DNA of 64,000 nucleotides from a virus. Its lineage: Duplodnaviria > Heunggongvirae > Uroviricota > Caudoviricetes. Position numbers and translations under genes: made by a program. This document shows, piece after piece, positions 3,351-60,323 of this stretch. Under the pieces are notes generated by a model, which saw nothing but the letters and a program-made list of their open reading frames with translations, did not search any database and was not told the origin of the DNA. Every line of letters begins with the position of its first letter. Within the stretch, counting starts at the first letter, position 1. The stretch is from positions 119,799 to 183,798 of the IMG/VR virus record IMGVR_UViG_3300031994_000001. The stretch is one strand, 5' to 3'.

Positions 3351-3400
3351 GCCAAACGACATTTTATAAATATAACAAATATGTCGTTTGGCATTTTTTT
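3351..3400 (+). terminator. rho-independent terminator; loop contains TATAAATA
   Basis: Perfect 12-bp inverted repeat GCCAAACGACAT (3351-3362) / ATGTCGTTTGGC (3381-3392) with an 18-nt loop TTTATAAATATAACAAAT, followed by ATTTTTTT. Confidence 0.6.
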
Positions 3401-14314: not shown

Positions 14315-15364
14315 ATGTTATACGGTCTTGACGACATAACGCTCATTCCCGCGAAGATAACGGACATTGATTCTCGTGCGGAGTGCGACCCGTTCTATCA
14401 CGACTATAACGACAAGGGCATATTCGGCAAGCATCTTCCGTTGCTTGCCGCCCCTATGAGTTCCGTGATTGACGAAAACAACTTCAACAAGTTCACCAAC
14501 TGTGGTATCAATGCCGTTGTTCCGAGAAGCGTTGATATTGAAAAACGCATTTCATTATGCAAGCACACATTCTGCGCATTCGGCTTGGACGAAATCAAAA
14601 CGCATTTCATTGACGATACACCGCTCGGATTCGGCAAGATGAGCGGGTTTCTCAATATGTATGTCTGCATAGACGTTGCCAACGGGCATATGCTGCGTGT
14701 GTATTCCGCTTGCAGGAAACTGAAAGACAAGTACAAAGACGGCATTTCCATAATGACGGGTAACATTGCCAATCCCGACACATACGCATATATTTGCGAC
14801 CGATATGAAGGTGCTGTTGATTATATTCGTGTTGGAATCGGTGGCGGTTCTTGCTGCACAACATCAGCCAACGCCGCAATTCACTATCCTATGGCTTCCC
14901 TCATTGAAGGCTGTTATACAGTAAGGGTTGACCGTGGAAACAATAATGTGGTATGCCCGTATATAGTTGCTGACGGCGGCTTTGATTCGTTTGACAAAAT
15001 CATCAAGGCTCTCGCCCTCGGTGCTGACTATGTTATGCTCGGATATGTCCTTGCGAAGTCGGAGGAGGCTTGCGGCAAAATTATTAGCGAGGAATATGTT
15101 GACGGTTGGCGCAGATTCCGCTATTACTACGGTATGTCAACGAAGAAAGCGCAAAAGGAAATGGGCAAGGGGGAACTGAAAACTGCGGAAGGCATTGAAC
15201 GCAAAGTCAATATCGAATACCCGATAGCGAAATGGGTTGAGAACTTCACGTCATACCTGCGTTCCGCTATGTCCTATATGGATGCCCGCAGCATTCTTGA
15301 CTTCATTGGCAGCGTGTGCTACGACAAAATATCGCCAAACGCATTCAAATCATTTTACAAATAA
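14315..15364 (+). CDS. guaC: GMP reductase (GuaC)-family IMPDH/GMPR TIM-barrel enzyme
   Basis: VCIDVANGH (E. coli GuaC has VCIDVANGY), VGIGGGSCCTTS (GuaC VGIGPGSVCTTR), IVADGG, GADYVMLG and YGMSTKKAQKE...AEG are collinear with GuaC. Length is 349 aa versus 347 aa for GuaC. Confidence 0.75.
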   Translation: MLYGLDDITLIPAKITDIDSRAECDPFYHDYNDKGIFGKHLPLLAAPMSSVIDENNFNKFTNCGINAVVPRSVDIEKRISLCKHTFCAFGLDEIKTHFIDDTPLGFGKMSGFLNMYVCIDVANGHMLRVYSACRKLKDKYKDGISIMTGNIANPDTYAYICDRYEGAVDYIRVGIGGGSCCTTSANAAIHYPMASLIEGCYTVRVDRGNNNVVCPYIVADGGFDSFDKIIKALALGADYVMLGYVLAKSEEACGKIISEEYVDGWRRFRYYYGMSTKKAQKEMGKGELKTAEGIERKVNIEYPIAKWVENFTSYLRSAMSYMDARSILDFIGSVCYDKISPNAFKSFYK

Positions 15365-15386: not shown

Positions 15387-15800
15387 ATGTTTACATTATT
15401 AGTTATTGGAATCATTTTCATTGTGGCGGTTGCAGCAAGCATTCTCATTTCAAATTATTGCGACACGCACGAACACCGCTCTTGGCTTGAAGGTGTGATT
15501 GTGATGACCTTTATGGTGACGGTTATTTCGTTTGTTTGTCTTGTGTTCGCCGTAATATCCCTTGCAGGTGTCAAGAACGATTTTGAATTGTGCAAGGAGA
15601 AATACGCAAATGCCGAGAGAATTGTCGAACAGACTTCACAAGGCAACGATACAATCCCGTTCTATGAGGTTGACGACATTGTGTTGGAGACGAACAATAT
15701 GATTTCCGAACATAAGGTTATGTGCAACGACAAGTGGCGCGACCTTTGGCACTCCGAGGAAGTAGGCAGTCTCACACCCCTTACATTGGACGGCAAATAG
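15387..15800 (+). CDS. small membrane protein, paralog A (2 TM helices plus a conserved C-domain)
   Basis: Shares DFELCKEKY...N.MI.EH.V....KW..LW.SEEVGSL.P with the next gene. Confidence 0.55.
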   Translation: MFTLLVIGIIFIVAVAASILISNYCDTHEHRSWLEGVIVMTFMVTVISFVCLVFAVISLAGVKNDFELCKEKYANAERIVEQTSQGNDTIPFYEVDDIVLETNNMISEHKVMCNDKWRDLWHSEEVGSLTPLTLDGK

Positions 15801-15801
15801 T

Positions 15802-15880
15802 GTTGATAACTTTGTTGATAACTTTTTCTGAAAAAAGTGTTGAGCGTATAAAAAATTTTGTATTTTTGCAGCGTCAATCA
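15802..15880 (+). promoter_or_regulatory. about 80-nt promoter/operator element, copy 1: direct repeat GTTGATAACTTT x2 followed by a Bacteroidetes-type promoter (TGTTG ... TATTTTTG)
   Basis: Near-identical to 29360-29438. TATTTTTG at 15861-15868 matches the TAnnTTTG -7 consensus, with a TTG element about 20 nt upstream. Confidence 0.5.
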
Positions 15881-15907: not shown

Positions 15908-16336
15908 ATGTACACGGTTATTTTAATTTCGGTTTTAACAGTAGTATTGTTTATCGCAGGTGTTGTTTTTAGTCAAAAGGACAAATTTTACAGTGCGAAT
16001 TGGCCAGATGCGATGGCGGGTGTGTCATTAGCCCTTGCGGTTTTCGGGGCTTGTATGTTGATTATCATAGGAATCTCTTTAATCGGCAAGAAGTCGGATT
16101 TCGAGTTGTGCAAGGAAAAATACAATATCACAGTCGAACTTGTCGAATCGTACTATGAGGGTGAGACTGAAACCGACAAAGGCGTGTTCGAGTATGACCT
16201 GCGCAAAATGATTGTCGCCACCAACACTATGATTGCGGAGCATAGGGTTTATTCAAAGAACAAGTGGCTGAACCTTTGGTACTCCGAGGAAGTCGGCAGT
16301 TTGAAGCCGATTTCGTATGAAACTCTGAAAAAATAA
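15908..16336 (+). CDS. small membrane protein, paralog B
   Basis: Tandem paralog of 15387-15800 with its own strong promoter element. Confidence 0.55.
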   Translation: MYTVILISVLTVVLFIAGVVFSQKDKFYSANWPDAMAGVSLALAVFGACMLIIIGISLIGKKSDFELCKEKYNITVELVESYYEGETETDKGVFEYDLRKMIVATNTMIAEHRVYSKNKWLNLWYSEEVGSLKPISYETLKK

Positions 16337-22619: not shown

Positions 22620-24130
22620 AAATCTTGTACTGTATATTTATAACGGGCTGTTTGCCTTATGTTCTGTTGTATATTTGTACCGTATAGAAAAATCTAATAA
22701 AAATTGTAATTATTAGTCCTTCTTTCTTGCTTCAACCTGCCACTACTTTTTAGGTTCATTTCTGAACGGTCATCCATAGTCGGGCAGTCCGCAAGCGTGA
22801 ATTCGGTGCTACGGACACCTATTGTTTTCAAGCCTTCACTCAAGATGTTCATTGCTGCGTTTATATCTCTGTCGTGGTGTTCACCACACATCGGGCAAGT
22901 CCATTCACGGTTGCTCAAAGTCAAGTCTTTATTGATGTAACCACACTTGTGACAAGTCTTACTGCTCGGATAGAAGCGGTCAACGAATACAACTTGTTTG
23001 CCATTCAACAACGCCTTGTCCGTCAGAACTTGTCTGAACCTATACAAGCCGATTTCTTGGATTGCTTTTGCAAGTTTGTGGTTCTTCAACATTCCCTGCA
23101 CGTTTAAGTCTTCCATACAAACCAAGTCGTAATCTTTAAGCAGACAATTCACGACATAGTAAATATATGCTTCCTTTCGGTTAGTCAATCGTTCAAACGC
23201 CTTCGCGAGTCTGATGCGCTGTTTGTTTCGGTTGTTCGAGCCTTTAACTTTCCTTGACAGTTGCTTTTGCAGTCTATTAACCTTTTGTTCCTGCTTCTTA
23301 AAGAAATGCTTGTTCTCAAAGACTTCACCATCGGATGTTATTACGAAGTCCTTTACACCGAGGTCTATGCCAACGCATTGATTGGTGTGTTTGAACTTTT
23401 GAAGTTCTTCCTGCGGGATATCAACAAGGATAGATAAGAAGTAGTTGCCGCTCTTGGTTCTCGAAACGGTGGCACTCCTTATCTTGTCCTTATAATCTTG
23501 AAGTCGTTTGAAATACAAGTCCGAACATCTGAAACGGATGTCCTTCAAATCTTGTGTGAGTGTTATCTTTCTTTCATTGAACGTGTTACGTTTGGAAATC
23601 GCTTCTGACGGGAACAACGCTGACTGCTTGTCTTTCTTTGACTTGAACTTCGGGAATCCGTTGTGCTGCTTGAAAAACTTTGAATAAGCGTCAAGCATCT
23701 GACGGATTGATTGCTTCATCACCTTTGTGTTCTGTTCCTGCAACCAAGCATAGTTCTCGTCTTTTAACAATGTTCCGTGAAACCACTTGGACAGTTCGGT
23801 CAATCCAAGATTGTTACCGTTTTCGTTGTATTCCTTTTGTTTTCGGTCAAGGCATTGGTTATAGACGAAGCGGTAGCAGCCAAGCACTTGTTTTAGTCTT
23901 GATTGCTGTTCCTTGTTCGGATATAACCTCACCTTGATTCCTCGCAACATATTCAATAATAGAATGTTCAATTAAAAAAGAGGCATTAAACTTGCGGCAG
24001 TGATGTGGAGAGTACCGACAAGGATAAAACCTCTGTATATATCTTATTCTATTTTGAAACGACTCTCCACTTTCGTTTCATTTTATTTATAAATAGTCTT
24101 AAACTACAATATATTTATACGAGTTTGTTT
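22620..24130 (-). mobile_element. IS200/IS605-family (IS1341-like) element carrying only tnpB; boundaries approximate
   Basis: tnpB with no adjacent Y1 tnpA. An inverted repeat GTGGAGAGT (24006-24014) / ACTCTCCAC (24067-24075) lies upstream of the tnpB start. The element sits between two leader-family paralogs. Confidence 0.4.
22694..23971 (-). CDS. tnpB: TnpB (IS605 OrfB-type RNA-guided nuclease family)
   Basis: N-terminal IKVRLYPNKEQQSRLKQVLGCYRFVYNQCL (OrfB HTH); C-terminal CHKCGYINKDLTLSNREWTCPMCGEHHDRDINAAMNI (zinc ribbon plus RuvC-III). Confidence 0.85.
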   Translation of the reverse strand: MNILLLNMLRGIKVRLYPNKEQQSRLKQVLGCYRFVYNQCLDRKQKEYNENGNNLGLTELSKWFHGTLLKDENYAWLQEQNTKVMKQSIRQMLDAYSKFFKQHNGFPKFKSKKDKQSALFPSEAISKRNTFNERKITLTQDLKDIRFRCSDLYFKRLQDYKDKIRSATVSRTKSGNYFLSILVDIPQEELQKFKHTNQCVGIDLGVKDFVITSDGEVFENKHFFKKQEQKVNRLQKQLSRKVKGSNNRNKQRIRLAKAFERLTNRKEAYIYYVVNCLLKDYDLVCMEDLNVQGMLKNHKLAKAIQEIGLYRFRQVLTDKALLNGKQVVFVDRFYPSSKTCHKCGYINKDLTLSNREWTCPMCGEHHDRDINAAMNILSEGLKTIGVRSTEFTLADCPTMDDRSEMNLKSSGRLKQERRTNNYNFY

Positions 24131-24447: not shown

Positions 24448-25245
24448 TTAGTATAATTTGAATTTTCCACCGATTCTCTTCGGTTTGCTTTTTGTTGATT
24501 TAAGCGATAGGTTGTTCGTGCAGTCGAAGTCCTTGCCCACTTTTTGCGGTGCGCCCACAAGGGATTTGAGTTCGTTGAACGAGCAGATGAATGAACCGCC
24601 CACTGCTCTCGGAGAGCCTTTCAAGTCTGATAAGTTGTTTCCCGAACAGTCGAATGTTCCGCCGACATATTGCGGTGCGCCTTCAAGGGTTACGAGGTTG
24701 TTGTCGCAGCAACTGAACACGTGTTTCACTTTTTGGGGTGCGCCTTTCAAATCAGTCAGACTGCATCCCTTGCAATAGAAGTTGCCGTTGATTTCACTTG
24801 GTGCGCCGACAAGCGAGGTTAGTGCCTTGCAGTTTGAACAGTTGAAGTTGCTTCCGACTTTCTTTGGCACACCTTCGAGTGATTCAAGCATAGGGTTGTT
24901 TTCGCAGCGAAACTCATATCCTACTTTTTTCGGTGCGCCTTTCAGCGATTTGAGATTTTTGTTGTCTGCGAAGAAGTTGCCCTTGACATAGCCGAAGTTT
25001 ATCTTGAACCCGTCACCGTCTTTTGCTATGATTTTATTGTCTATGAAAACGGAATGTTCCGAATCGTAGCATTTTGTAATCGGGTTGTATGTTAGTTTCT
25101 GTTTGGCGATGAACTCTTTTGCTTGCTCATCGGTCAGTCCCGCGTCCTCGTATTCCTTGTGTATGTATTTGCCGAGCCGTTCCTTTGAGACGGGTTCTAT
25201 CTCCAATTTCTCGCCTATGTATTCGTCTGCTTTGAGAATCTTCAT
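24448..25245 (-). CDS. leader-family protein 3 with about 8 x 22-aa LRR-type repeats (L.GAPQKVGG.F.CS.N.L.S)
   Basis: MKILKADEYIGEKLEIEPVSKERL..., then repeats such as GAPKKVGSNFNCSNCKALTSLVGAPSEINGNFYCKGCSLTDLKGAPQKV. Confidence 0.6.
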   Translation of the reverse strand: MKILKADEYIGEKLEIEPVSKERLGKYIHKEYEDAGLTDEQAKEFIAKQKLTYNPITKCYDSEHSVFIDNKIIAKDGDGFKINFGYVKGNFFADNKNLKSLKGAPKKVGYEFRCENNPMLESLEGVPKKVGSNFNCSNCKALTSLVGAPSEINGNFYCKGCSLTDLKGAPQKVKHVFSCCDNNLVTLEGAPQYVGGTFDCSGNNLSDLKGSPRAVGGSFICSFNELKSLVGAPQKVGKDFDCTNNLSLKSTKSKPKRIGGKFKLY

Positions 25246-25259
25246 AATGGTGCATTATT

Positions 25260-26273
25260 TTAATTCTTGTCGTCTATTATTGCGATTTTGACCCAAGACG
25301 GTTTCTCTTTTGGTAAAATGAGATTCGGGTTTCCGCTGCACAAAAATATTCTGTCAACTTTCTGTGGTGCGCCTTCAAGCGTTATGAGTTTGTTATATCT
25401 GCAATCAAAATCGCCTTTTATTTTCTGTGGTGCGCCATTGAGTGATGTCAGCAAGTTGTTGTTGCAGTGGAAAGAACCAGTTTTCTTCGGTGCGCCTTCG
25501 AGTGACGATATGTAATTGTTGTCGCAACGAAAACTTGCACCCACTTTATGCGGTGCGCCTTTTAGACTTGTAAGTTTGTTGTTTGAACAATCAAAGTGTC
25601 TGTTCACTATATATGGTGCGCCTTCAAGGGATGTGAGTTCGTTATTTTTACATACATAGTTCTGTTCCACCGTATATGGGGAATGCTTCAGTGATGTTAA
25701 TTTGTTATTGCTACAAATAAAATATTCGCCAATTTCGTTTGGCGCATATTCAAGTGTGGTGAGTTTATTGTTACTGCAATCGAAGCCACCACCGACTTTT
25801 ATGGGTGCGCCTTTTAATGATGTTAGTTTGTTGTTATTGCAATTAAAATATCCGCTAACAATTTTCGGTGCGCCCTCAAGTGTGGTGAGTTCATTTTTGG
25901 CACAATCAAAATCCCCGTTGATTATTCCAAATTTTATTTTAAGTTTTCCGTCTTTTACAATTCGTTTGTCAACGGATACGGCACAATTTGCGTCATAGCA
26001 AATGGTGGCATTGTTGAAAACGAGTTTGTATTCTTTTATGTATGATGCTGTATCGAAGTCTATTATTTTTGATTCGGCGTGTTTTTTAAGTGTTTCTTTT
26101 GATATAGGTTTGATGTTTAGTTTTTCATCTACCCGTTTTTTGCGTTTGGCTTTATTTGTTTGGCTTGTACACGTGTTCTCTTTTTTTGTTTGTTCTATTC
26201 TGTCTTTGACATAACTGTCGAAGTCCATTACGCTGCCCTCGAATCTTCTTATTTTTTCTAATCTGCCATCCAT
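25260..26273 (-). CDS. leader-family protein 4 with about 10 LRR-type repeats; leader preceded by a ~45-aa basic extension
   Basis: ...KRVDEKLNIKPISKETLKKH..., then NNKLTSLKGAPIKVGGGFDCSNNKLTTLEYAPNEIGEYFICSNNKLTSL... Confidence 0.6.
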   Translation of the reverse strand: MDGRLEKIRRFEGSVMDFDSYVKDRIEQTKKENTCTSQTNKAKRKKRVDEKLNIKPISKETLKKHAESKIIDFDTASYIKEYKLVFNNATICYDANCAVSVDKRIVKDGKLKIKFGIINGDFDCAKNELTTLEGAPKIVSGYFNCNNNKLTSLKGAPIKVGGGFDCSNNKLTTLEYAPNEIGEYFICSNNKLTSLKHSPYTVEQNYVCKNNELTSLEGAPYIVNRHFDCSNNKLTSLKGAPHKVGASFRCDNNYISSLEGAPKKTGSFHCNNNLLTSLNGAPQKIKGDFDCRYNKLITLEGAPQKVDRIFLCSGNPNLILPKEKPSWVKIAIIDDKN

Positions 26274-26789: not shown

Positions 26790-27731
26790 ATGAATTTTGA
26801 CGAATTATTGAGTATGGACGACAATGTGTCCGTAGAAGACGTTTCAACAGAACCCGTTAGAAACAAGGTCATTGACCCGAACCTTTACACAATCAACCTT
26901 GCCGATGCCAAGGACGGCGTTTACAAAGCAAGGGTAAGATTCCTTCCCAACCCCGTTGATGTAAAGAAATCCATTCTCGCAAAGTACACCTATTGGCTTA
27001 CCGATGCAAACGGTGAGAACGGTATCTATGTTGACGACCCAAGCACCATCGGAGAGAAATCCCCAATCGGCGACTTGTATTGGAAACTGAAAAAGTCCAC
27101 CAATGTCGTTGACCAAAACCTTGCTGAAGAATATCTCAACAGAAATCGCCAATACTTCTCTCTCGTTCAAATTATCAAGGACGAACAACACCCCGACCTT
27201 GTTGGTCAAGTCAAGGTGTTCAGATACGGTATCAAAGTCAAGGAAAAAATTGATGCCGAGTTCACAGACGAGGACGGCGGAAATCCGTTCAACATTATGT
27301 CGGGTCGCGAGTTCAAGATTGAGGTCAAGAAATCGGGCGGCTATCAGAACTATGACGCTTGCAAATTTGCAGGCAGCAAAGAGCCTATCACCATTGACGG
27401 CAAGAAACTCGGCAAGACCTCCGCTGATATGAAGCGTCTTGAAGCGTTGTACGAGGATGCACCAAGTCTTGACGACTACAACTTCAAGCCTTGGAGTGCC
27501 GAACTCACCGAACAAGTCTATGAACGTCTGCGTACATTCGGCAAGACGGGCGGCGCAATCGGCGGCACAAAGCACAACGCCCCGAAGTCTGCTGTTGAGG
27601 CTGCAATGGCACAAGAGAAAGAACCCGAAGTTGATGTTGACGAAGACGATGGCGGCGGCAGAGACGAGGATGAAATCCCTTACAGCGACAGCGGCGATGA
27701 CGATGACTTGCTTGCAGGAATTGACATTTAA
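26790..27731 (+). CDS. T4 gp32-like single-stranded DNA-binding protein
   Basis: YKARVRFLPNPVD (gp32 has AVIRFLPSKND), KVFRYGIKVKEKIDAEF (gp32 KVFKYRFGKKIWDKINAM), REFKIEVKKSGGYQNYDACKF (gp32 [21 protein letters not shown]), and an acidic C-terminal tail DEDEIPYSDSGDDDDLLAGIDI. Confidence 0.75.
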   Translation: MNFDELLSMDDNVSVEDVSTEPVRNKVIDPNLYTINLADAKDGVYKARVRFLPNPVDVKKSILAKYTYWLTDANGENGIYVDDPSTIGEKSPIGDLYWKLKKSTNVVDQNLAEEYLNRNRQYFSLVQIIKDEQHPDLVGQVKVFRYGIKVKEKIDAEFTDEDGGNPFNIMSGREFKIEVKKSGGYQNYDACKFAGSKEPITIDGKKLGKTSADMKRLEALYEDAPSLDDYNFKPWSAELTEQVYERLRTFGKTGGAIGGTKHNAPKSAVEAAMAQEKEPEVDVDEDDGGGRDEDEIPYSDSGDDDDLLAGIDI

Positions 27732-29278: not shown

Positions 29279-29330
29279 TGCTATTGAAGTGGGTATGGCA
29301 GGTTCAATTTGATTACAAGCATTGACACAA

Positions 29331-29357
29331 GCCCGTCAGTTTGACGGGCTTTTTTTA
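29331..29357 (+). terminator. rho-independent terminator
   Basis: GCCCGTCA-gtt-TGACGGGC followed by T7. Confidence 0.7.
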
Positions 29358-29359
29358 TT

Positions 29360-29438
29360 GTTGATAACTTTGTTGATAACTTTTTTCAGAAAAAATGTTG
29401 AGTGTATAAAAAATTTTGTATTTTTGCAGCGTAATCAA
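29360..29438 (+). promoter_or_regulatory. about 80-nt promoter/operator element, copy 2 (GTTGATAACTTT x2 ... TATTTTTG)
   Basis: Near-identical to 15802-15880; TATTTTTG at 29419-29426; drives the HTH/alpha-CTD gene. Confidence 0.5.
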
Positions 29439-29451
29439 AAACGATACCGAT

Positions 29452-30261
29452 ATGGAAAAAGAAGCAACAAGAAGAATGTTATCACGGCAGGATGCCGCCG
29501 AGTTTTTACGCTGCAATCAACAGACAATATCCAATTGGATTGAGAGCGGCATTTTGAGAGGTCACAAAATCAACGGTCGCGTTTTCGTTGACGCTGACAC
29601 GCTTCACGCAATTGCCGACAGTGTTGATGACATTGAACGTGCGAAAAGAAGAATCGAAGAACTCCGTGACGAGTACGCCAAGAAGTGCAAGGAACTCGAA
29701 GATGCTGTGAACAGCAAGCGTGAGGAACTTGAACTCTACAACAATTCCTCCGTGAACAGAATCACGAAGCACGCCATTACATCAATGCTTTCTTCATTCG
29801 GCGAGGTCATTCCCCAATATGCACGAGAGATTGTTGTTGACCTCGTGAACAACGGCAACCTTGACTATACGGCGCAGAAGATGGAAATGTCAACGAAGAA
29901 TGTCATCAGAATCGCCGACAGCGTTTGCAACAGTATTAGATTTGCGAGATACGACAAGAAGGTTGCCGAGAACGAGTATCTGATGAGACGCATCGCTGAA
30001 TTGGAACACGAGAACGATTGTCTCAAAAAGGGAATCCACTGCGAGACAAACACGGCGAACAATCCCATTCTGAAATCCAAGATTATTGACTGCGACTTCA
30101 GCGTGAGGGCAATCAACTGTATGCGTGCCATCGGCATTGAGACTGTTGAGGATATGCTGAAGGTCGGCTTGCGTGAGATTGCAAAGTACCGTAATGTCGG
30201 TCGCAAGACCCTTTCCGAGATTGAGGAGTTCGCACAAACCAACGGTTTGAATATTCGTTAA
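29452..30261 (+). CDS. DNA-binding regulator: N-terminal excisionase-type HTH (HTH_17-like), central coiled-coil, C-terminal RNA polymerase alpha-subunit CTD-like domain
   Basis: LSRQDAAEFLRCNQQTISNWIESGILRGHKINGRVFVDADTL is the Xis/HTH_17 pattern. DFSVRAINCMRAIGIETVEDMLKVGLREIAKYRNVGRKTLSEIEEF compares with RpoA alpha-CTD [46 protein letters not shown]. Confidence 0.6.
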   Translation: MEKEATRRMLSRQDAAEFLRCNQQTISNWIESGILRGHKINGRVFVDADTLHAIADSVDDIERAKRRIEELRDEYAKKCKELEDAVNSKREELELYNNSSVNRITKHAITSMLSSFGEVIPQYAREIVVDLVNNGNLDYTAQKMEMSTKNVIRIADSVCNSIRFARYDKKVAENEYLMRRIAELEHENDCLKKGIHCETNTANNPILKSKIIDCDFSVRAINCMRAIGIETVEDMLKVGLREIAKYRNVGRKTLSEIEEFAQTNGLNIR

Positions 30262-31240: not shown

Positions 31241-32776
31241 ATGCAGTTATTTATTTTAATCGCAGCAGCAGTAATCGTGTTAGTAATCTTTATCGCCGTG
31301 TGCTACGTGAAAGCACCCCCGAAAGATGCCTACATCATCAGCGGTCTTTCCAAACAGCCGCGAATCCTCATCGGCAAGGGCGGATTCAGAATCCCAGGAT
31401 TGGAACGAGTGGACAAGGTGTTCCTCGGTCAGACTTCCGTGGATATTAAGACCTCCGTTCCCGTGCCGACCAACGACTTCATCTCCGTTATGGTGGATGC
31501 CGTGGCGAAGATTAGGGTAATCAACACGCCCGAAGGTATCAGACTTGCGGCAAAGAACTTCCTCAATATGTCTGAAAAGGACATTGCCAACCAAGTCAAG
31601 GATTCCCTCGAAGGTAATATGCGTGAGATTATCGGTACTCTTGACCTCAAGTCGCTGAACATTGACCGAGACGGTTTCTCCGACCAAATCGCCAAGAAAG
31701 CGGCAAACGATATGGCGAAACTCGGTATCGAAGTGATTTCCTGCAACATTCAGAACATCACCGACAACGAAGGTCTTATCAAAAACTTGGGTGCTGACAA
31801 CACGTTCAAAATCCGCAAAGAAGCCGCCATTACCAAGGCACAAGCCGAGCGAGACATTTCCATCGCCGAATCGGTAGCCGCCAAGGAAGCCAACGATGCC
31901 CGCGTTGAGAACGAGACTATTATCGCCGAGAAGAACAACGCTCTCGCCATCAAGAAAGCCAATCTGAAGGTCTCCGAGGACACCCAAAAGGCAAAGGCTG
32001 ACGCTGCCTACGAAATCCAAAAGCAGGAGCAGCAGAAAACAGTCAACGAGAAAACGGTTGAAGCAGAGGCTGCGAAGATGATTCTCACGCAAGAGCGTCA
32101 GAAGGAAATCAACGCCAAGGCTGTTGAAGCGGAGACCGAGAAAGCCCGCCGCGAGCAGGAACTGACCGAGGAGCAGGTCAAGATTCAGAAGAACAAACTC
32201 GAAGCGGAGATTCAGAAGAAAGCCGATGCCGACAAGTACCAAAAGGAAATCGCCGCCGCCGCCGAACTCGAACAGAGAAAGCGTAACGCCGAGGCAGAGG
32301 CTTACGAGGCAGAGCAACGCGCCCGCGCTATCAAGGCACAAGCCGAGGCTGAACAGTTCCGTATGGAGCAGGAAGCCCTCGGTAAGAAGAAACTCGCCGA
32401 TGCCGCCGCCTACGAAATCGAACAGAAAGGTATGGCAGAAGCCGCCGCAATCGAAAAGAAAGGTGTCGCCGAGGCAGAGGCTATGCGCAAGAAAGCAGAC
32501 GCTTTCAAGGAGTACGGTGACGCTGCAAAGGCACAGATGGTCATTGAAAAACTGCCCGAAATCGCCAAGGCTGTCGCCGAACCTATCTCGGCTATTGACA
32601 GCGTGAACATCTACGGCACTAACGGCAATGGTGTCGGCGAAATGAGCGGCAACGTCCCAGTTCTCATCAAGCAAACGATGGATGTCGTGTCTGACACCAC
32701 GGGTGTCAATATGACGGAGATTATGGAAAAGACAACCCTCGAAAACGCCGTGAAGCGTGTGGGTGGGAAAGAGTAG
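31241..32776 (+). CDS. flotillin / SPFH (band-7) family membrane protein
   Basis: N-terminal TM helix LFILIAAAVIVLVIFIAVCYV, an SPFH core (IISGLSKQPRILIGKGGFRIPGLERVDKVFLGQTSVDIKT...), then a long E/A/K-rich coiled-coil (AEAEAYEAEQRARAIKAQAEAEQFRMEQEALGKKKLADAAAYE) and a C-terminal IEKLPEIAKAVAEPISAIDSVNIYG typical of flotillin/YqiK. Confidence 0.8.
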   Translation: MQLFILIAAAVIVLVIFIAVCYVKAPPKDAYIISGLSKQPRILIGKGGFRIPGLERVDKVFLGQTSVDIKTSVPVPTNDFISVMVDAVAKIRVINTPEGIRLAAKNFLNMSEKDIANQVKDSLEGNMREIIGTLDLKSLNIDRDGFSDQIAKKAANDMAKLGIEVISCNIQNITDNEGLIKNLGADNTFKIRKEAAITKAQAERDISIAESVAAKEANDARVENETIIAEKNNALAIKKANLKVSEDTQKAKADAAYEIQKQEQQKTVNEKTVEAEAAKMILTQERQKEINAKAVEAETEKARREQELTEEQVKIQKNKLEAEIQKKADADKYQKEIAAAAELEQRKRNAEAEAYEAEQRARAIKAQAEAEQFRMEQEALGKKKLADAAAYEIEQKGMAEAAAIEKKGVAEAEAMRKKADAFKEYGDAAKAQMVIEKLPEIAKAVAEPISAIDSVNIYGTNGNGVGEMSGNVPVLIKQTMDVVSDTTGVNMTEIMEKTTLENAVKRVGGKE

Positions 32777-32851: not shown

Positions 32852-33706
32852 CTATTCTGTAAATTTCGGTTGATTTTCTGTATGCTGTTCAATTGGACTG
32901 CCTTTGAAAATATGATAATGCCTTTTTACCATTTCAACATTCCATTTTGAAATATTCCCATCAAACTTTGAGCGGCAAAACATTTCTTCCATATCATACA
33001 CATTTGATACGTTCCAATCGGATATATTGCCGTTGAATTTTGATTTGTAAAACATTGCACGCATATCTTTAACATTTTTCACATTCCAGTTGGATAAATC
33101 ACCATTAAAAATTGAATCTGTGAACATATAGGACATATCACCAACACGTTTAACATCCCATTCGGATATATCGCCGTTGAATTTACTCATATTAAACATA
33201 CCAGACATATTATAAACATTAGATACATCCCATTTTGATATGTCGTTATTGAAAATGGATTGGGTGAACATATTTTTCATATAATTCACTTTGCTGACAT
33301 TCCAATTAGATATATCGCCGTTAAATCTTGAAAAATGAAACATATGACTCATATTAGTTACATTTGACACATCCCATTTTGATATATCTCCATTGAAATC
33401 GCTACTTCCGAACATATAAGACATATCTTTCACGTTAGAAACATCCCATTCGGATATATTCCCCGTAAATTTGGTATGGTCGAATAGGTCACTCATATCG
33501 GTTATTTTTGAAGTGTCAATAATGTTCAAGTCACATTCATAGCCTTCATCTTTAATGATTTTCGATATGATTTTTTTCAATTCTTCCTTTGTCTGTGGAT
33601 GATATTTTCCGTCAGACATCAAGTTTTCTGTGTTGTAATCAGTTTGTGTTGTTGTGTACTTTTGAGCATTAACTGATAAATATTCGTTAATTTTGTAAAT
33701 TTTCAT
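32852..33706 (-). CDS. DUF285-type repeat protein (about 9 x 26-aa F.GDIS.WDVSNV..M..MF repeats) with a leader-like N-terminus MKIYKINEYL
   Basis: Repeats such as FNGDISKWDVSNVTNMSHMFHFSRFNGDISNWNVSKVNYMKNMF, the pattern seen in Mycoplasma/Listeria DUF285 surface proteins. Confidence 0.6.
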   Translation of the reverse strand: MKIYKINEYLSVNAQKYTTTQTDYNTENLMSDGKYHPQTKEELKKIISKIIKDEGYECDLNIIDTSKITDMSDLFDHTKFTGNISEWDVSNVKDMSYMFGSSDFNGDISKWDVSNVTNMSHMFHFSRFNGDISNWNVSKVNYMKNMFTQSIFNNDISKWDVSNVYNMSGMFNMSKFNGDISEWDVKRVGDMSYMFTDSIFNGDLSNWNVKNVKDMRAMFYKSKFNGNISDWNVSNVYDMEEMFCRSKFDGNISKWNVEMVKRHYHIFKGSPIEQHTENQPKFTE

Positions 33707-35326: not shown

Positions 35327-37534
35327 TTATTGTTTTTCAAATCCGTTGCTTTTGAGGAATTTTTTGATTGTAGGCAGTTCATACAACTGCTCTGGACCGA
35401 TGTTGTACTTAATCAATTCCTCCCTTGCGCCGTCATCCATTTTGCGTATTTCCTCATATCCCGTGAGGTATGAACTGTCAAGCGAAGTCGCGTAGTTCTC
35501 GTTCCAAAACACGATACGCATAGCCCTAATGATTCCAATGAGGGCATCGTCCATTTTGGATTCGGTCATCTTCATAATCTTTTTCACGAGTTCGTCAGTT
35601 GACATAGTGAACAAGTGCTTCAGTATGATGATTTTCTTCGAGATGTAGAACATAATGTTCGGCTTCGGCTTCGGCGATTTGTCAAGGGAATTGTAGATTG
35701 CCATACCCTCGTCATACTTGCCCGCGCCGTGGAGACCGTATAGAAACAGATTCAACCCCGTCTTTATTCCGCTGTCCTTTCTCGCAACGTGGGTGTTCAC
35801 TTCGTGGCGTTTGAGTGAGTCAATGTCAACCTTGCTGAAGTTGCTGTGGGCGTTTATGAGGAATTTCTTGTATGTCTTGACGCTCATTCTCGGAACGAGG
35901 TTGTCATCAAGTTCGACTTCCCAATTATACCCTTTTTTCTTTATTTCTTCCTCCATCTCCTTTTTAGCCTCTTTCGGGGTTATGGTGCGCTTGTAGTCTT
36001 TGTCTTTTTTCTCCAGGTCGTGTATGTCGTCCACGGGGTTTTCCTTGATGTATTTCAATGCCTTGTGATAAAGGTAGTTTGACGGACGGTAGAAGTTCTT
36101 TGGAAGTTTGCGCTTGCCGTTCACGTAGTCGTGTATGTATTCTATGTTCTTTTTCACGATTTCGAGTTTGTCAAGGTAGAATTTTGTGAGGTAGCAGGCT
36201 TGGAACTCGCGGAAATCGTCAATGAGTGATTCCACGTCATCCATAAACGTCTTGTATTGTTTTTCGTCACTCCAAGCGGATTTTTCGTATTCGATTTTAT
36301 CGAATGTCAAGTCGTAGTCATCGTCCTCGCGCAAGTGCTTTTTATACCTGCTTATGAGTTCGCTCATATTGGTTATGTTTTGGAAGTGGGATTTTTCCTT
36401 GTGGTATTTGTCCATTATCTTCCCGTAACGCTTGTCGTATTCGATAAGTTTCTCCTTGTTCTTGTCGGATAATTTTATTTTCTCGTCTATGTAGTCGTTC
36501 ACTGATTCAAGCACGAACACGTTACCGTATTCACTGCGAACCAAGTCACGCTGCTGAAGTTCGTTGTCTGTGAGGTCGTCAAACGGAACAACCCTAACGT
36601 TTCTGTTGTTGTCGTCATAGCAGATATAGTTGAGGTCGGTCTTTATGTCGGTTATGCCGATAACACCGCTCGGACTTTTCACTACATTGAACGAAAGCAT
36701 ACCTCCGACACGCTTTGCGGTCTCGTTACCTTTTTGGCGGGCGACACAGTTTCCAAGTGAATATGCGCAGAGAGTCCTGCCTCTGTCGCCAACCCATCTG
36801 ACGGGTTGCACAACGTGCGGGTGTGTTCCGATGATTATGTTCACTCCGAGTTGGGAGAGATATTCGGATATGTGACGCTGCTCCTTGTTGATGTCGCCGA
36901 GCATATATTCAGTACCCCAATGCAGGGAGACTATCACGACATCGGCGTTCTTGCGGGCGTACATAATATCCCTTACACCGAACTGCTCGTCCCAAATGTT
37001 GATGCCGCTTACCCGTTTCTTGCGCATAGTGTTCACCCGTGTGGTGTATGAAACGAAAGCGAACACGATTCCGTTCTTTGTAAAAAACGATACCCTTGAT
37101 TCGGGGCTGTTTTCATCAAGACCCGAACACACAGCCCCGCTTGAATACCAAAACTTTCTGTTCTGTTCCAAGCCGTCCAATCCGTTGTCGATGACGTGGT
37201 TGTTGGCAAGTGAGATGAGGTTGAACCCTGCGTCAAGTATGGCATCGCCGAAATTGGTGTCCGCAGCGAACAGAGCAGTACCCATTTCACCCAATTCTCC
37301 GCCGTGCTTGCTGTCGCATATAGGGGTTTCGGCGTTGCAGTATCTTATGTCGTATTGCTGTATCTTCGGTTTTAGTGCGCTGAACACATCGCTGTAATCA
37401 TACCCGTTTTCCGCAGCGTCATTCTGTATGTCCGTATGGGCGAGCATATCGCCGACAGCCACGAAACTGACTATGGCGTTTTCGGAGTTTGCTGATTCAT
37501 TTACGAATTTGTCGTATGTCTTAATGTAGTTCAT
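35327..37534 (-). CDS. CapA/PGA_cap-like metallophosphoesterase domain (N-terminal ~380 aa) fused to a ~350-aa C-terminal domain of unknown function; N-terminus MNYIKTYDKFVNES weakly resembles the leader
   Basis: AVGDMLAHTDI...ADTNFGDAILDAGFNLISLANNHVIDNG...VSLHWGTEYMLGDINKEQR...IIGTHPHVVQP matches CapA-family motifs (SLHWGTEY, GHHPHV). Confidence 0.6.
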   Translation of the reverse strand: MNYIKTYDKFVNESANSENAIVSFVAVGDMLAHTDIQNDAAENGYDYSDVFSALKPKIQQYDIRYCNAETPICDSKHGGELGEMGTALFAADTNFGDAILDAGFNLISLANNHVIDNGLDGLEQNRKFWYSSGAVCSGLDENSPESRVSFFTKNGIVFAFVSYTTRVNTMRKKRVSGINIWDEQFGVRDIMYARKNADVVIVSLHWGTEYMLGDINKEQRHISEYLSQLGVNIIIGTHPHVVQPVRWVGDRGRTLCAYSLGNCVARQKGNETAKRVGGMLSFNVVKSPSGVIGITDIKTDLNYICYDDNNRNVRVVPFDDLTDNELQQRDLVRSEYGNVFVLESVNDYIDEKIKLSDKNKEKLIEYDKRYGKIMDKYHKEKSHFQNITNMSELISRYKKHLREDDDYDLTFDKIEYEKSAWSDEKQYKTFMDDVESLIDDFREFQACYLTKFYLDKLEIVKKNIEYIHDYVNGKRKLPKNFYRPSNYLYHKALKYIKENPVDDIHDLEKKDKDYKRTITPKEAKKEMEEEIKKKGYNWEVELDDNLVPRMSVKTYKKFLINAHSNFSKVDIDSLKRHEVNTHVARKDSGIKTGLNLFLYGLHGAGKYDEGMAIYNSLDKSPKPKPNIMFYISKKIIILKHLFTMSTDELVKKIMKMTESKMDDALIGIIRAMRIVFWNENYATSLDSSYLTGYEEIRKMDDGAREELIKYNIGPEQLYELPTIKKFLKSNGFEKQ

Positions 37535-47948: not shown

Positions 47949-48689
47949 ATGGAACTGTATAACGGCGATTGCATAGATATAATGAAAGACATACCAAGCG
48001 GCAGCGTGGATATGGTGCTGTGCGATTTGCCATACGGAACTACACAGAACAAATGGGATGCCGTCATTCCGTTTGACTTGCTGTGGGAGCAGTACAACCG
48101 TGTGGCAAAGGTATCAGCAGCCATTGTTCTGTTCGCGCAGGGTGTGTTCTATGCAGACCTTGTTCACTCCAACAGAAATAATTTTCGATACGACCTTGTG
48201 TGGGATAAAATGCTTAAAGGCGGGTTCTTGAACGCAAAGGTTATGCCGATGCGCATACACGAGCAGATTGCTGTGTTTTATAGAAAGAAACCCGTTTACA
48301 ACCCGCAGAAGACAAAAGGCAAACCGAACCACACGAAAGGGACGGCTATATTCACGAAAGGCGAGACCAACAACAACTATGGTAAATACAACCCCGTTGA
48401 AACTGACGTGAATGACGATATGAAATATCCGAGTACCATACTGTCGTTCCAAAAACCTCATCCGAGTGTTTCGGTTCATCCCACACAGAAGCCCGTTGAG
48501 TTGCTTGAATATCTCATAAGGACATTCACAAACGAGGGTGACACGGTGTTGGACAATACAATGGGTAGCGGCAGCACGGGTGTAGCCTGCGTGAATACGA
48601 ACCGAAATTTTATAGGCATAGAGAAAGATACTAATTATTTTGAAATAGCGAAAAAGAGAATTGAGGAATCAAATAAAAAATTGTTCTGA
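47949..48689 (+). CDS. DNA methyltransferase 1 (N6-adenine/N4-cytosine, beta-class, PF01555-like)
   Basis: Motif IV variant CDLPYGTT near the N-terminus (D-L-P-Y in place of D-P-P-Y); HPTQKPVELLEYLIRTFTNEGDTVLDNTMGSGSTGVAC (motif I) near the C-terminus. Confidence 0.8.
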   Translation: MELYNGDCIDIMKDIPSGSVDMVLCDLPYGTTQNKWDAVIPFDLLWEQYNRVAKVSAAIVLFAQGVFYADLVHSNRNNFRYDLVWDKMLKGGFLNAKVMPMRIHEQIAVFYRKKPVYNPQKTKGKPNHTKGTAIFTKGETNNNYGKYNPVETDVNDDMKYPSTILSFQKPHPSVSVHPTQKPVELLEYLIRTFTNEGDTVLDNTMGSGSTGVACVNTNRNFIGIEKDTNYFEIAKKRIEESNKKLF

Positions 48690-49433
48690 ATGAACGACAT
48701 CAGACTATATAACGGGGATTGTCTTGAAGTTATGGCGGGTTTGGAAGAGCATAGCGTTGACTGCGTTATATGCGACCTTCCATACGGCATAACGAGTAAC
48801 AAGTGGGATATTGTCATACCCTTTGACAAATTGTGGGAATCGTATGACAGAGTGTGCAAGGAAAACGCTATGATATGTTTGTTCGGCGGGCAACCGTTTT
48901 CGTCAATGCTTGTTATGTCGAACTTGAAGATGTTTCGTCACGAGTGGATTTGGATTAAGAACAGAGGAAGCAACTTTGCGAATACGGTGAGAGAGCCTAT
49001 GAAAGAACACGAAAGCATATTGTGTTTCTCGAAAGGCAAATGGACTTACAACAAGCAGATGCAGGAGCGCACTGGCGGGGGTGCTGACCGTGTTAAGTAC
49101 AGCATATCGTTTGACACTTCATCATCGAACTACCGTGATTTTGACAAAAAGGAAAACCTTGTGCTTACGGAGGAACGTGTGCTGTCATCATACCAAAAGT
49201 TCAACACGGAAGTTGGGTTGCACCCCACACAGAAACCAGTAGCCTTGCTTGAATATCTGATACGGACATACACTAATGAGGGCGACACTGTAATGGACAA
49301 TACGATGGGCAGCGGCTCTACGGGTGTAGCCTGCGCCAACACGGACAGAAATTTTATAGGAATAGAACTTGATAAAAAATATTTTGACATTGCTGAAAGT
49401 AGGATAAAATATGCAAATAAAAAACTTTTCTGA
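48690..49433 (+). CDS. DNA methyltransferase 2 (paralog)
   Basis: CDLPYGITSNKWD ... HPTQKPVALLEYLIRTYTNEGDTVMDNTMGSGSTGVAC; the start abuts the previous stop. Confidence 0.8.
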   Translation: MNDIRLYNGDCLEVMAGLEEHSVDCVICDLPYGITSNKWDIVIPFDKLWESYDRVCKENAMICLFGGQPFSSMLVMSNLKMFRHEWIWIKNRGSNFANTVREPMKEHESILCFSKGKWTYNKQMQERTGGGADRVKYSISFDTSSSNYRDFDKKENLVLTEERVLSSYQKFNTEVGLHPTQKPVALLEYLIRTYTNEGDTVMDNTMGSGSTGVACANTDRNFIGIELDKKYFDIAESRIKYANKKLF

Positions 49434-49434
49434 A

Positions 49435-50385
49435 ATGGACGGGGTGAAACTATACAACGGGGACTGCCTCGAAGTTATGAACGATATACCCGATAACAGC
49501 GTTAATTTAATACTTTGTGACCTTCCATACGGCACAATGGGTATAAAATGGGACGTTACGATACCGTTTGACAAACTGTGGGAACACTACAATCGTGTAC
49601 TGAAACCAAACGGTACGGTTCTGCTTTTCGGAAGCGAGCCGTTTGCTTCTATGGTTCGTTACAGCAATCCGTCTATGTACAAATACGATTGGGTTTGGGA
49701 GAAAAACAACTGCGGCAATTTCCAATTGGTGAACAAGCAGCCTATGAAGATACACGAGACAATATCCGTGTTTTATGAGATTCCGAGACATTACGCCTTT
49801 TCGGAAATAATCGTTTCCAATATGAAGCGTCTTGGCTTGGGTTACAACGAGGTCAGTATGCTGTTCCCGTCACGAAACGGTTTACAGACGGGTTGGCTGT
49901 CCAACAAGATAAGCGGAAAGCAGTTGCCTACAAGAGAGCAATGGAAGCGTTTGTGTAATTTGTTCGGTATTGAAGATGAATATGACAAACTCGCAGTCAA
50001 GAACACTATAACCTATAATATGGTTCTGAAAGACGTTGAGAGAACATTGTCAAACAAAGGCAAAGGCGGCAGGCTCGGACATCTCGGCTCGCAGAACAAG
50101 CGCAGCGAGTATAAGCAGACAAAGAGCGGTTATCCAAAAAGCATATTGAAGTTCAACCGAGAGACGGGATTTCACCCTACGCAGAAGCCCGTTTCGCTGC
50201 TTGAATTTTTGGTTAAAACCCACAGCAACGAGGGTGACGTTGTTCTTGACAACTGTATGGGCAGCGGTTCTACGGGTGTAGCCTGCGTGAATACGGGCAG
50301 GAACTTTGTCGGCATTGAAATTGAGAAAAAGTATTTCGAGATTGCCGAAGAACGCATTTTGGATTCCGAAAAGAAACTGTTTTAG
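49435..50385 (+). CDS. DNA methyltransferase 3 (paralog with an ~80-aa insertion)
   Basis: CDLPYGTMGIKWD ... HPTQKPVSLLEFLVKTHSNEGDVVLDNCMGSGSTGVAC; ATG 1 nt after the previous stop. Confidence 0.8.
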   Translation: MDGVKLYNGDCLEVMNDIPDNSVNLILCDLPYGTMGIKWDVTIPFDKLWEHYNRVLKPNGTVLLFGSEPFASMVRYSNPSMYKYDWVWEKNNCGNFQLVNKQPMKIHETISVFYEIPRHYAFSEIIVSNMKRLGLGYNEVSMLFPSRNGLQTGWLSNKISGKQLPTREQWKRLCNLFGIEDEYDKLAVKNTITYNMVLKDVERTLSNKGKGGRLGHLGSQNKRSEYKQTKSGYPKSILKFNRETGFHPTQKPVSLLEFLVKTHSNEGDVVLDNCMGSGSTGVACVNTGRNFVGIEIEKKYFEIAEERILDSEKKLF

Positions 50386-50413
50386 TTGTGTTAAAAAACA
50401 AAAAATTATTCTG

Positions 50414-51349
50414 ATGGTAAGAAACATTATAATTGATGGCGAATTGCCAATAATATGTTCCGTCCCCGCCATTGAGGGTGTCGCTTATATGCTCAAGGAG
50501 CATTTTAACGACAAACCGAACAGACAGTTCACGGTGAACACAAGCATAGAGGATTACGATGAGTTGGAGAAAAACAGCGAACTCACGGACTGTATGGTCT
50601 ATTACAATATGGAGCATAAGTGCAAGATTATGTGGAACGGGCAGTTGCCGTTCTGCGGTTCGTATTGGACGGAGAAAAACAACGAAATGTTCGCCAAGTA
50701 TGATGAGATATGGGATTTCCAAATTGAGAACTACGAGTATTTCAAGTACCACGGTCTCGGAGACAAATTCAGATTCAGACCGCTACGGTACACAAGTTTC
50801 TATGAATGGTACAGAACAAGCGAGAAACCGCAGTTCGACATTCAGTTGGAGTGTGTTATTGATTCCGATATTAGGGCGGTTGCATTGCGTAATCTGACCG
50901 ATATTCCTATGGCTGTTGACGATAACGGAAATTATGTGATTACGGGTGAGCGTATGCGAATCAACCTAACAAACACAATGGAAAGCGGCGTGAAACTGTT
51001 GGCAAAGAACAACTGCCGCTATGGTATTGACATTCCGAGATATGACGTGCTTTGCACGATAAACACGTTCCGAATCTATGAGTATGTCTGTATGAACAAG
51101 CCCGTTATTGTATGGGATAAATACGGCATCACATCAAAGCGTTATTTCAACGACTTGTGCATTTACACAAAAGACATTACCGCGTACAACATAAACAACA
51201 TAATTCAGAACGAGCCGAAGTCCGATGTTGCCGACACATTCAAGCAGATGACATTCAATGATTCCGACTATAACGAATACATACTTGACATAGTGCGCGA
51301 CCATAAAGATAGGACGGGTGAGACTATTCCCGATTCAGTATTGCAATGA
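50414..51349 (+). CDS. hypothetical protein (311 aa) embedded in the methyltransferase array
   Basis: ORF from the ATG 28 nt after the MTase-3 stop; its stop overlaps the MTase-4 ATG (ATGA). No confident motif. Confidence 0.5.
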   Translation: MVRNIIIDGELPIICSVPAIEGVAYMLKEHFNDKPNRQFTVNTSIEDYDELEKNSELTDCMVYYNMEHKCKIMWNGQLPFCGSYWTEKNNEMFAKYDEIWDFQIENYEYFKYHGLGDKFRFRPLRYTSFYEWYRTSEKPQFDIQLECVIDSDIRAVALRNLTDIPMAVDDNGNYVITGERMRINLTNTMESGVKLLAKNNCRYGIDIPRYDVLCTINTFRIYEYVCMNKPVIVWDKYGITSKRYFNDLCIYTKDITAYNINNIIQNEPKSDVADTFKQMTFNDSDYNEYILDIVRDHKDRTGETIPDSVLQ

Positions 51350-52161
51350 TAGACGATACAAACATAGAACTTTTGCACGGTGATTGCCTTGAACTTATGA
51401 AAGGCATACCCGACAACAGCATAGACCTCGTGCTGTGCGATTTGCCATACGGCACGACCGCCTGCGCTTGGGATGCCGTCATACCATTCGAGCCGCTTTG
51501 GGAACAGTACAAAAGGGTTACAAAAGACAATTCACCGATTGTGCTGTTCAGCACACAGCCGTTTACAACAATGCTCATCTACTCAAACATAAAATGGTTC
51601 AGAGAGGAAATCATTTGGCTTAAAAACCGTGGCGGCAGCGGTCTCCATTCCGACAGACGGCATATCAAGACTCACGAGAATATCGTTGTTTTTTCCAAAG
51701 GTTCGTACACGTTCAACCCGCAGAAGTGGGCAGTGTGTGACAAAAAGTTCCTCGTACACAGAAAGGTGTTTGACTACGGCTATGCGAAAAACAACATATA
51801 CGGAAATATTCGCGATGTGAAGAAACCCGATGACGGAACTCGGAATCCGATAAGCGTTGTGTCATACGAAGTGCCTCATACCCCGTCAAAAGGCAGGCAT
51901 TATGACAGCAATGTTGACTTGCGATACCATCCGACACAGAAACCGATAGAACTGCTCGAATACCTTATAAAGACATATAGCAATGAGGGAGGCGTTGTTC
52001 TTGACAACACTATGGGTTGCGGCAGCACGGGTGCAGCCTGCGTGAACACAAACCGCAAATTCATAGGCATTGAGATTGAGAAAGAGTATTTTGACATTGC
52101 GGAGAAACGCATAAAAGAAGCCAAGCAAAAACAGCAAACTGAAGCAAAGACATTGTTCTGA
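51346..52161 (+). CDS. DNA methyltransferase 4 (paralog)
   Basis: CDLPYGTTACAWD ... HPTQKPIELLEYLIKTYSNEGGVVLDNTMGCGSTGAAC. Confidence 0.8.
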   Translation: MIDDTNIELLHGDCLELMKGIPDNSIDLVLCDLPYGTTACAWDAVIPFEPLWEQYKRVTKDNSPIVLFSTQPFTTMLIYSNIKWFREEIIWLKNRGGSGLHSDRRHIKTHENIVVFSKGSYTFNPQKWAVCDKKFLVHRKVFDYGYAKNNIYGNIRDVKKPDDGTRNPISVVSYEVPHTPSKGRHYDSNVDLRYHPTQKPIELLEYLIKTYSNEGGVVLDNTMGCGSTGAACVNTNRKFIGIEIEKEYFDIAEKRIKEAKQKQQTEAKTLF

Positions 52162-59609: not shown

Positions 59610-59616
59610 AACATAT

Positions 59617-60321: not shown

Positions 60322-60323
60322 AG

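Follow-up and report, generated by a model that had tools for sequence, protein, structure and literature searches.

We analysed a 64,000-nucleotide stretch of viral DNA (positions 119,799 to 183,798 of IMG/VR record IMGVR_UViG_3300031994_000001, Caudoviricetes; hereafter the window) with respect to one plus-strand gene, whose coding sequence (29452..30261; ATG at 29452, end of the stop codon at 30261) is supported by its open reading frame (ORF), Pfam matches and close homologues and specifies a protein of 269 amino acids (aa; hereafter the window protein). On balance, we favour the view that the gene product is an early, probably dimeric, DNA-binding transcription regulator, which combines polymerase-derived modules with an excisionase (Xis)-type helix-turn-helix (HTH) and would help to redirect the host enzyme between promoter classes. 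From the N to the C terminus, the protein consists of an Xis-type winged HTH, a coiled coil, a sigma region-4 HTH, an Asn-containing leucine zipper and an RNA polymerase alpha C-terminal domain (alpha-CTD). A role in transcription is the most economical reading of this domain set; the dimerisation, DNA binding, target sites and sign of regulation that go with it we infer from sequence and structural models. Judged by profiles and folds, the two C-terminal modules descend from those parts of the bacterial RNA polymerase holoenzyme that serve as readers of the upstream promoter half. An initial annotation had described a regulator made of an excisionase-type HTH and an alpha-CTD. Both domains were identified correctly, but the protein is not a two-domain one: a sigma region-4-like HTH sits between two heptad helices. 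It is thus more unusual than first described, because it carries both upstream promoter readers of the polymerase, sigma region 4 and alpha-CTD.

The window protein belongs to a family that comprises at least 130 clusters (50% identity) with a whole-length match at E <1e-30, as found in a profile search covering 1.84 billion cluster representatives. Among 101 relatives, the Pfam domain RNA_pol_A_CTD was present in all 101 and HTH_17 in 100. A close subfamily (10 clusters, 33-97% identity) lies on phage contigs. For the window protein, an AlphaFold2 model was computed with 11 homologues as input (mean pLDDT 82); it resolves five parts, namely the winged HTH, a 50-residue helix, a four-helix domain, a second long helix and the alpha-CTD.

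The alpha-CTD, a helix-hairpin-helix (HhH) domain at about aa 205-265 (30064..30246), is identified by Pfam, a sequence search of the PDB, its fold and its contact residues. The Pfam match to RNA_pol_A_CTD (PF03118) covers aa 202-259 with E 5.2e-15 and 55.4 bits (cut-off 23.8). Nearly all matches of a phmmer search against PDB sequences were RpoA chains, the best being 9n9p_A (E 7e-12) and 8dkc_A (E 2.5e-11), which belong to the RNA polymerases of Flagellimonas taeanensis and Porphyromonas gingivalis, respectively, both members of the Bacteroidota. In a Foldseek comparison, the modelled domain superposed on solved alpha-CTDs with 1.1 A over 64 residues and a template modelling (TM) score of 0.88 to 1z3e_B, and further fold matches were obtained with 1coo, 1lb2 and 9zum, the last of which is bound to AT-rich DNA. 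These results bear out the earlier statement that the last ~55 residues follow the RpoA alpha-CTD (the peptide quoted for it corresponds to residues 215-266), and the structure prediction that had been proposed as a check does return an alpha-CTD fold.

Fold and DNA-contact residues are the same as in the alpha-CTD of RpoA (PF03118; 1COO, 1LB2, 1Z3E, 9ZUM), whereas the module in the window protein hangs from a leucine-zipper-like helix without the alpha N-terminal domain, so that the protein is not a polymerase part. Consistently, no Pfam match to the RpoA N-terminal domains PF01000 and PF01193 was found in the window protein, and with 27-53 bits the NCBIfam rpoA models stay below their cut-offs of 228-523. 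An alpha-CTD reads A/T-rich UP DNA through the minor groove. With window protein residue n equivalent to E. coli RpoA residue n+46, the DNA-contact residues of the 265 determinant have the equivalents R219 (R265), N222 (N268), C223 (C269), G250 (G296), K252 (K298) and T253 (S299). Over 101 members, the residues equivalent to R265 and G296 are each conserved in 100, E302 in 97, S/T299 in 92, N294 in 90, K298 in 87, N268 in 83 and C269 in 68. Conservation of the contact residues equivalent to R265, N268, G296, K298 and S299 suggests that the domain probably keeps its DNA binding. The protein ends at the equivalent of residue 315 and therefore lacks the tail of the E. coli 287 determinant (G315, R317, L318), which contacts CAP. 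Both features together favour a DNA-binding module over an activator-contact decoy, which changes the initial proposal that the domain could recruit or sequester UP-element and activator contacts.

As to its origin, the alpha-CTD of the window protein is 37% identical to that of Bacteroides finegoldii RpoA, and that of a relative, P0059, shares 71% identity with Bacteroides/Phocaeicola RpoA. This closeness points to capture of the domain from Bacteroidota hosts. Outside RNA polymerase, the alpha-CTD is a widely re-used DNA-binding repeat: P0020 contains 10 copies in 1031 aa, P0105 has four copies together with a ResIII helicase, and P0026 carries two copies behind HTH_17 and sigma region 4. 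Two further large proteins, P0117 and P0128, contain 5-6 alpha-CTD copies along with other HhH domains.

The module that was missed by the initial annotation is the four-helix HTH domain at about aa 100-165 (29749..29946), which the Pfam matches of relatives and profile comparisons identify as a diverged region 4 of sigma-70. In sigma factors, this region recognises the -35/-33 element through the major groove. Of 101 full-length relatives, 65 have a Pfam match to Sigma70_r4 (best 4.8e-13), 29 to GerE and 26 to Sigma70_r4_2, and two sources independently labelled relatives as 'sigma-70 family' and 'CsgD family'. Searched against the PDB, a middle-domain profile built from 40 members retrieved SigA/RpoD region 4 at E 1.4e-13; with a profile of the 13 closest sequences, SigA region 4.2 was still the top match, although only marginally so (E 0.026). 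When residues 98-168 were modelled on their own (pLDDT 90), the matches were mainly to sigma region 4 and LuxR/FixJ domains, with TM scores of 0.6-0.7 and a root-mean-square deviation (rmsd) of 1.6-3 A; the Foldseek E values (0.3-3) are non-significant, which is not surprising for a domain of ~70 residues. Most relatives have ...LTRERIRQI..KAIRK... as the recognition helix, close to that of primary sigma factors, and more distant members have a nearly primary-sigma-like region-4.2 consensus, L..RE..IL.....G.....IA...GL..ERI.QI..KA.RK.

Compared with region 4 of primary sigma factors (PF04545; PDB 1KU3, 3N97, 7CKQ chain F), the predicted four-helix HTH appears similar and the TRERIRQI..KA.RK segment is near-intact in most relatives; sigma regions 1-3 are absent, so the protein is not a sigma factor. 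Accordingly, Sigma70_r2 had no match in the window protein and is not among the top 25 Pfam families of the 101 relatives. One of the fold matches, PDB 3N97, has sigma region 4 next to an alpha-CTD on UP/-35 DNA, and the family joins both modules in one chain. For a joint action of the two modules, this arrangement provides a physical precedent.

The polymerase parts from which the two modules derive also make protein contacts, and we therefore considered that the protein might act by mimicry instead of DNA binding, the reading that comes nearest to the sequestration idea of the initial annotation. As a polymerase-binding decoy or sigma-appropriation factor, it would dock its region-4-like domain on the beta-flap tip or on partners of sigma region 4 and capture alpha-CTD partners with its second module. 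Redirection of the host enzyme by way of sigma region 4 and the alpha-CTD is known from T4-type phages, and two residues of the family fit such contacts: an acidic residue takes the place of D259 in 87 of 101 members, and the position of E261, Asp in 41 of 101, has an invariant Asp in the close subfamily. However, the best-conserved residues of the alpha-CTD are the DNA-contact set, and the tail of the 287 determinant is missing. In E. coli, sigma R603 contacts the alpha-CTD; a corresponding contact through the R603 and E261 equivalents was rejected as a candidate, since an R603 equivalent was not seen conserved after the KA.RK motif when the sequences were inspected by eye, without tabulation. 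We consider such a decoy rather unlikely.

We prefer the DNA-binding regulator, whose remaining parts comprise the two long helices and the N-terminal HTH. A single 50-residue helix (aa 48-97, 29593..29742) has the 3-4 hydrophobic spacing of a probable coiled coil in the model and in heptad analysis. The second, leucine-zipper-like helix (about aa 170-195, 29959..30036), recognised from its heptads and a weak Pfam bZIP_2 match, has L177, L184 and L191 at d positions and Asn at the a positions 174, 181 and 188. N188 is invariant in the close subfamily, and Asn at 174 or 181 is common in the wider family. This Leu/Asn pattern is that of a parallel dimeric leucine zipper and suggests that the protein dimerises.

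The N-terminal winged HTH (aa 9-47, 29476..29592), of the HTH_17/excisionase (Xis, MerR-like) type, is the most conserved part of the close subfamily. It was recognised by Pfam HTH_17 (aa 9-54, E 4.4e-9, 36.9 bits, cut-off 27), and in the AlphaFold2 model it superposes on the Xis protein of mycobacteriophage Pukovnik (4j2n) with an rmsd of 1.0 A over 46 residues (Foldseek), in agreement with the excisionase-type HTH of the initial annotation. PHROGs 66, 2907 and 7735 (HTH_17/excisionase) also match, and the NCBIfam excisionase model TIGR01764 reaches 24.9 bits, under its cut-off of 28.8. Sequence and fold of the domain are thus alike in Xis excisionases (Pukovnik Xis, PDB 4J2N) and in the window protein. 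For Xis-type proteins acting as transcription factors there is a precedent from Bacteroides, since Xis2c and Xis2d of CTnDOT also activate transcription.

The genomic distribution of the family separates close from distant members. In the close subfamily, a 192-kb contig carries the gene of a 47% identical homologue (P0008) in divergent orientation to a Portal_T4 gene and close to T4_Y16D, while the P0189 gene is near that of a type II topoisomerase subunit. The window itself encodes a gp32-type single-stranded DNA-binding protein (SSB) at 26790-27731, near the regulator gene, as well as collagen-like tail fibres. The gp32-type SSB, together with Portal_T4 and T4_Y16D beside the homologue, marks the phage that carries the gene, a phage of Bacteroidota, as T4-like, and the T4-like phages of the close subfamily are presumably lytic. 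Distant members were found on island-like Bacteroidota contigs with HU-HIG, DUF4248, a BT4734-like primase domain, restriction-modification genes and UmuDC. A further relative, WP_124785686.1, is encoded on the mobilizable Chryseobacterium plasmid NZ_CP034172; it aligns to residues 70-268 with 28% identity and has sigma region 4 and alpha-CTD without HTH_17. The pairing of these two modules recurs across the family.

The architecture is common in databases, under generic names: UniProt and NCBI hold only automatic names of the kind 'DNA-directed RNA polymerase subunit alpha C-terminal domain-containing protein', the family is not covered by any NCBIfam model, and a literature search found no description or functional study of it. 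Phage entries of ~130 aa such as A0A2P1JY10 (Rhodococcus phage Finch) likewise have an alpha-CTD in a mobile-element protein other than RpoA, without the other modules.

The excisionase matches in Pfam, NCBIfam and PHROGs, the occurrence of distant members on island-like contigs and a plasmid, and the use of alpha-CTD repeats as generic DNA binders in P0020 and P0105 could also be read as signs of an architectural or recombination protein, i.e. an excisionase-like directionality factor or DNA organiser whose three modules are plain DNA binders without a link to transcription. We regard this as quite improbable. Of the window proteins scanned, which did not comprise every ORF, none had an integrase or recombinase domain, and the close subfamily resides in T4-like, presumably lytic phages. 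In addition, a protein of 269 aa with two heptad helices and two extra DNA-reading modules is three to four times longer than Xis excisionases, and family members repeatedly show the specific combination of sigma region 4 and alpha-CTD.

The assignment of the regulator to an early class is based on its promoter and on the other promoter classes of the window. Upstream of the gene, an intrinsic-terminator-like hairpin with a 10-bp stem and a T-run (29329..29351, plus strand) closes the preceding unit, so that the gene begins its own transcription unit. The hairpin is followed on the same strand by a tandem direct repeat of the 12-mer TTGTTGATAACT (29358..29381), at about -72 to -49 from the predicted transcription start, and by a T-tract/A-tract, TTTTTCAGAAAAAA (29382..29395), which resembles an UP element and lies between the repeats and the -33 element, a layout that is the same in related cassettes. 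In Bacteroidota, the primary sigma factor and its promoters (-33 TTTG, -7 TAnnTTTG) differ from the E. coli model. The core promoter of the gene (29397..29426, plus strand) is, by sequence, of this Bacteroidota type, with a -33-like GTTG (29397-29400), a spacer of 18 nucleotides (nt) and TATTTTTG as the -7 box (TAnnTTTG, 29419-29426); a -7 box ~33 nt 5' of the ATG was found in five of the nine close homologue loci examined. The 74-bp promoter cassette (29358-29431), comprising the 12-mer pair, the T/A tract and the -33/-7 elements, has a near-exact second copy in the window (15800..15873, plus strand), which precedes ORF 15908-16336, and the cassette is also present at the loci L020, L021, L025, L046, L049, L065, L069 and L072.

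Two other promoter classes were recognised. The motif cGGAwwTTTTTATTATATT occurs in seven copies in the window, at 1962(-), 13906, 17142, 26700, 30811, 47913 and 63706; it precedes the gp32 gene (26700, 'TTTTTATTATATT' promoter), the methylase array and other genes, and it is conserved in the related phage contigs L002, L003, L025, L027 and L028. Because these promoters lack a host -7 box, they may need a phage factor. A link of the regulator to this class was considered and set aside as suggestive only. The T4 late consensus TATAAATA is present in 22 copies (for example at 3365, 26298(-), 37646, 45327, 52958, 56099(-) and 62728(-)), 17 of which are intergenic, and many lie 25-40 nt 5' of start codons. 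This strong concentration in intergenic DNA implies a gp55-type late sigma factor in this Bacteroidota phage. Structural genes carry TATAAATA, unlike the regulator gene. The host-type -33/-7 promoter, next to two other classes in the window, indicates that the regulator would be made by the host polymerase as an early-class product of a staged T4-like programme.

Promoter class and gene neighbourhood also speak to the reading as a small terminase subunit, in which an N-terminal HTH would be followed by a central helix for oligomerisation and a C-terminal domain for contact with the large terminase. PHROG 57 (E 1e-6, aa 3-77) and PDB 6hn7_B (E 0.1) do match, but only over the N-terminal HTH and the first helix, and the HTH is a generic one; a terminase-like C-terminal region was not found. 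The gene has a host-type early promoter instead of the TATAAATA of structural genes, it lies beside the gp32 SSB gene and not among packaging genes, and relatives occur on a plasmid and on island-like contigs. We have rejected this reading as extremely improbable.

The tandem 12-mer would be an obvious candidate for an autoregulatory operator of the regulator, as TTGTTGATAACT x2 was found upstream of the homologous gene in five of the nine close lineages examined, in which the proteins are only 41-66% identical. This candidate was rejected on account of the other contexts of the repeat. In a metagenome scan, the exact 24-mer was found in 45 stretches, only one of which precedes a family member, on the same contig as L001. 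About a dozen of the 45 are copies of this phage promoter cassette, including four on a single 146-kb contig, and about eight precede a gene of ~840 aa, a probable ribonucleotide reductase judging from its N-terminal sequence; several are arrays of at least three units. The core of TTGTTGATAACT, TGTTGATAA (TTATCAACA), is one mismatch from the DnaA box. TTATCAACA has been termed a DnaA box in the Cyanothece origin, and CTGTTGATAAC is present in the origin of T. tengcongensis. In L032, perfect DnaA boxes (TGTGGATAA) extend the array in a 12-bp register, and L042 and L067 have further perfect boxes within ~120 nt of the 24-mer; together, the three stretches contain seven perfect DnaA boxes, compared with 0.18 expected by chance. 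The 12-mer pair is therefore best read as DnaA-box-like elements of this promoter class, and its sequence suggests that a set of early promoters in this phage group is tied to host DnaA. The same 24-mer also occurs in DnaA-box clusters and before probable ribonucleotide reductase genes on unrelated metagenome contigs.

The P0007/P0004 lineage (L002 8780-8890, L028 1160-1275) is without the 12-mer pair and has another conserved upstream sequence, TGATTTTTGC.A.TAGCAGAA. In the HTH_17 helix of this lineage, Leu is found where others have Gln23 (Q23L). A co-variation of the two changes is possible.

Several findings weigh against a regulator that acts on polymerase promoters. The recognition helix of region 4.2 has diverged in the window protein (MSTKNVIRIADSVCNSIR versus LTRERIRQIEAKALRKLR), and Sigma70_r4 (PF04545) gave no match to it in Pfam at E up to 1; for these reasons, a -33/-35-type specificity appears doubtful in its subfamily, even though the fold appears to be kept. 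As alpha-CTDs serve elsewhere as generic repeated DNA binders, descent from the polymerase need not mean action on the polymerase or mimicry of it. Moreover, no conserved operon partner was seen at the homologue loci examined, and no binding site is assigned to the protein, given that the conserved upstream 12-mer is better explained as DnaA-box-like.

According to the mechanism that we propose for the regulator, a dimer would sit on promoter-upstream DNA by means of its sigma region-4 and alpha-CTD readers, and the winged HTH would add specificity. From this position, it would either block sites that the host polymerase needs or form a bridge to the polymerase, and either route would help to switch the host enzyme between phage promoter classes. 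Phage T4 redirects the host RNA polymerase with AsiA and MotA, which act via sigma region 4 at middle promoters, and with Alt and ModA, which ADP-ribosylate R265 of the alpha-CTD. Like T4, the phage studied here has staged promoter classes and an early product that concerns the same two modules; T4, however, modifies or remodels the modules of the host, whereas this phage encodes its own copies, and the functional analogy is hypothetical. In the Pfam scan of the window protein at E up to 1, the models that scored were of the HTH and alpha-CTD types, and neither MotA nor AsiA was among the families listed. More broadly, and only tentatively, we suggest that Bacteroidota mobile elements have a transcription factor class of their own, namely dimers in which a host-captured sigma region 4 and alpha-CTD act in trans on an Xis-type targeting domain and replace or compete with the host modules at chosen promoters. 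This would be a form of sigma appropriation unlike that by AsiA/MotA of T4, and T4-like Bacteroidota phages might have in it their missing early-to-middle switch.

Apart from the regulator, the window contains several genes of interest. A TnpB/IS605 OrfB-type gene (22694-23971, minus strand; HTH_OrfB_IS605, OrfB_IS605, Cas12f1-like TNB) is located within the phage genome. Five paralogous N6/N4 DNA methyltransferase genes, which share repeated 5' and 3' segments, occupy 47949-52949, and one unassigned ORF (50306-51349) lies among them. On the minus strand, a multigene family with 63-nt internal repeats (24448-26273 and 58968-61136) looks like a diversified repeat-protein set, and minus-strand genes with 5' ends at 22537, 25169, 35242, 57109, 58445, 59533 and 60245 also have ~25 conserved N-terminal codons. 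Further phage cargo of an unusual kind comprises a flotillin/SPFH protein (31241-32776), a DUF285 repeat protein (32852-33706, minus strand) and a PGA_cap and MATCAP-like protein (35327-37534, minus strand). An adenylosuccinate-synthetase-like gene at 18786-19901 matches the PurZ family phrog_1211 (PHROG, E 2e-39), and an IMPDH/GMP-reductase-like gene is found at 14315-15364. By sequence, the two could belong to a 2-aminoadenine (Z-base) pathway or another purine-remodelling pathway; no candidates for DatZ or MazZ were found among the neighbours. Z-DNA (2-aminoadenine) would change the A/T minor groove that is read by alpha-CTDs.

How Bacteroidota and their phages control transcription is still poorly understood. 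As structures of Bacteroidota RNA polymerase exist and purified enzyme allows direct testing, the family described here is accessible to experiment, and it could supply portable parts with which to engineer gene expression in gut Bacteroides. Even as a plain three-headed DNA-binding regulator, the protein shows the capture and re-use of polymerase domains by mobile elements. If the broader proposal is true, the fusion of both upstream-promoter readers in one protein would represent a new way to redirect the host polymerase, widespread on mobile elements.

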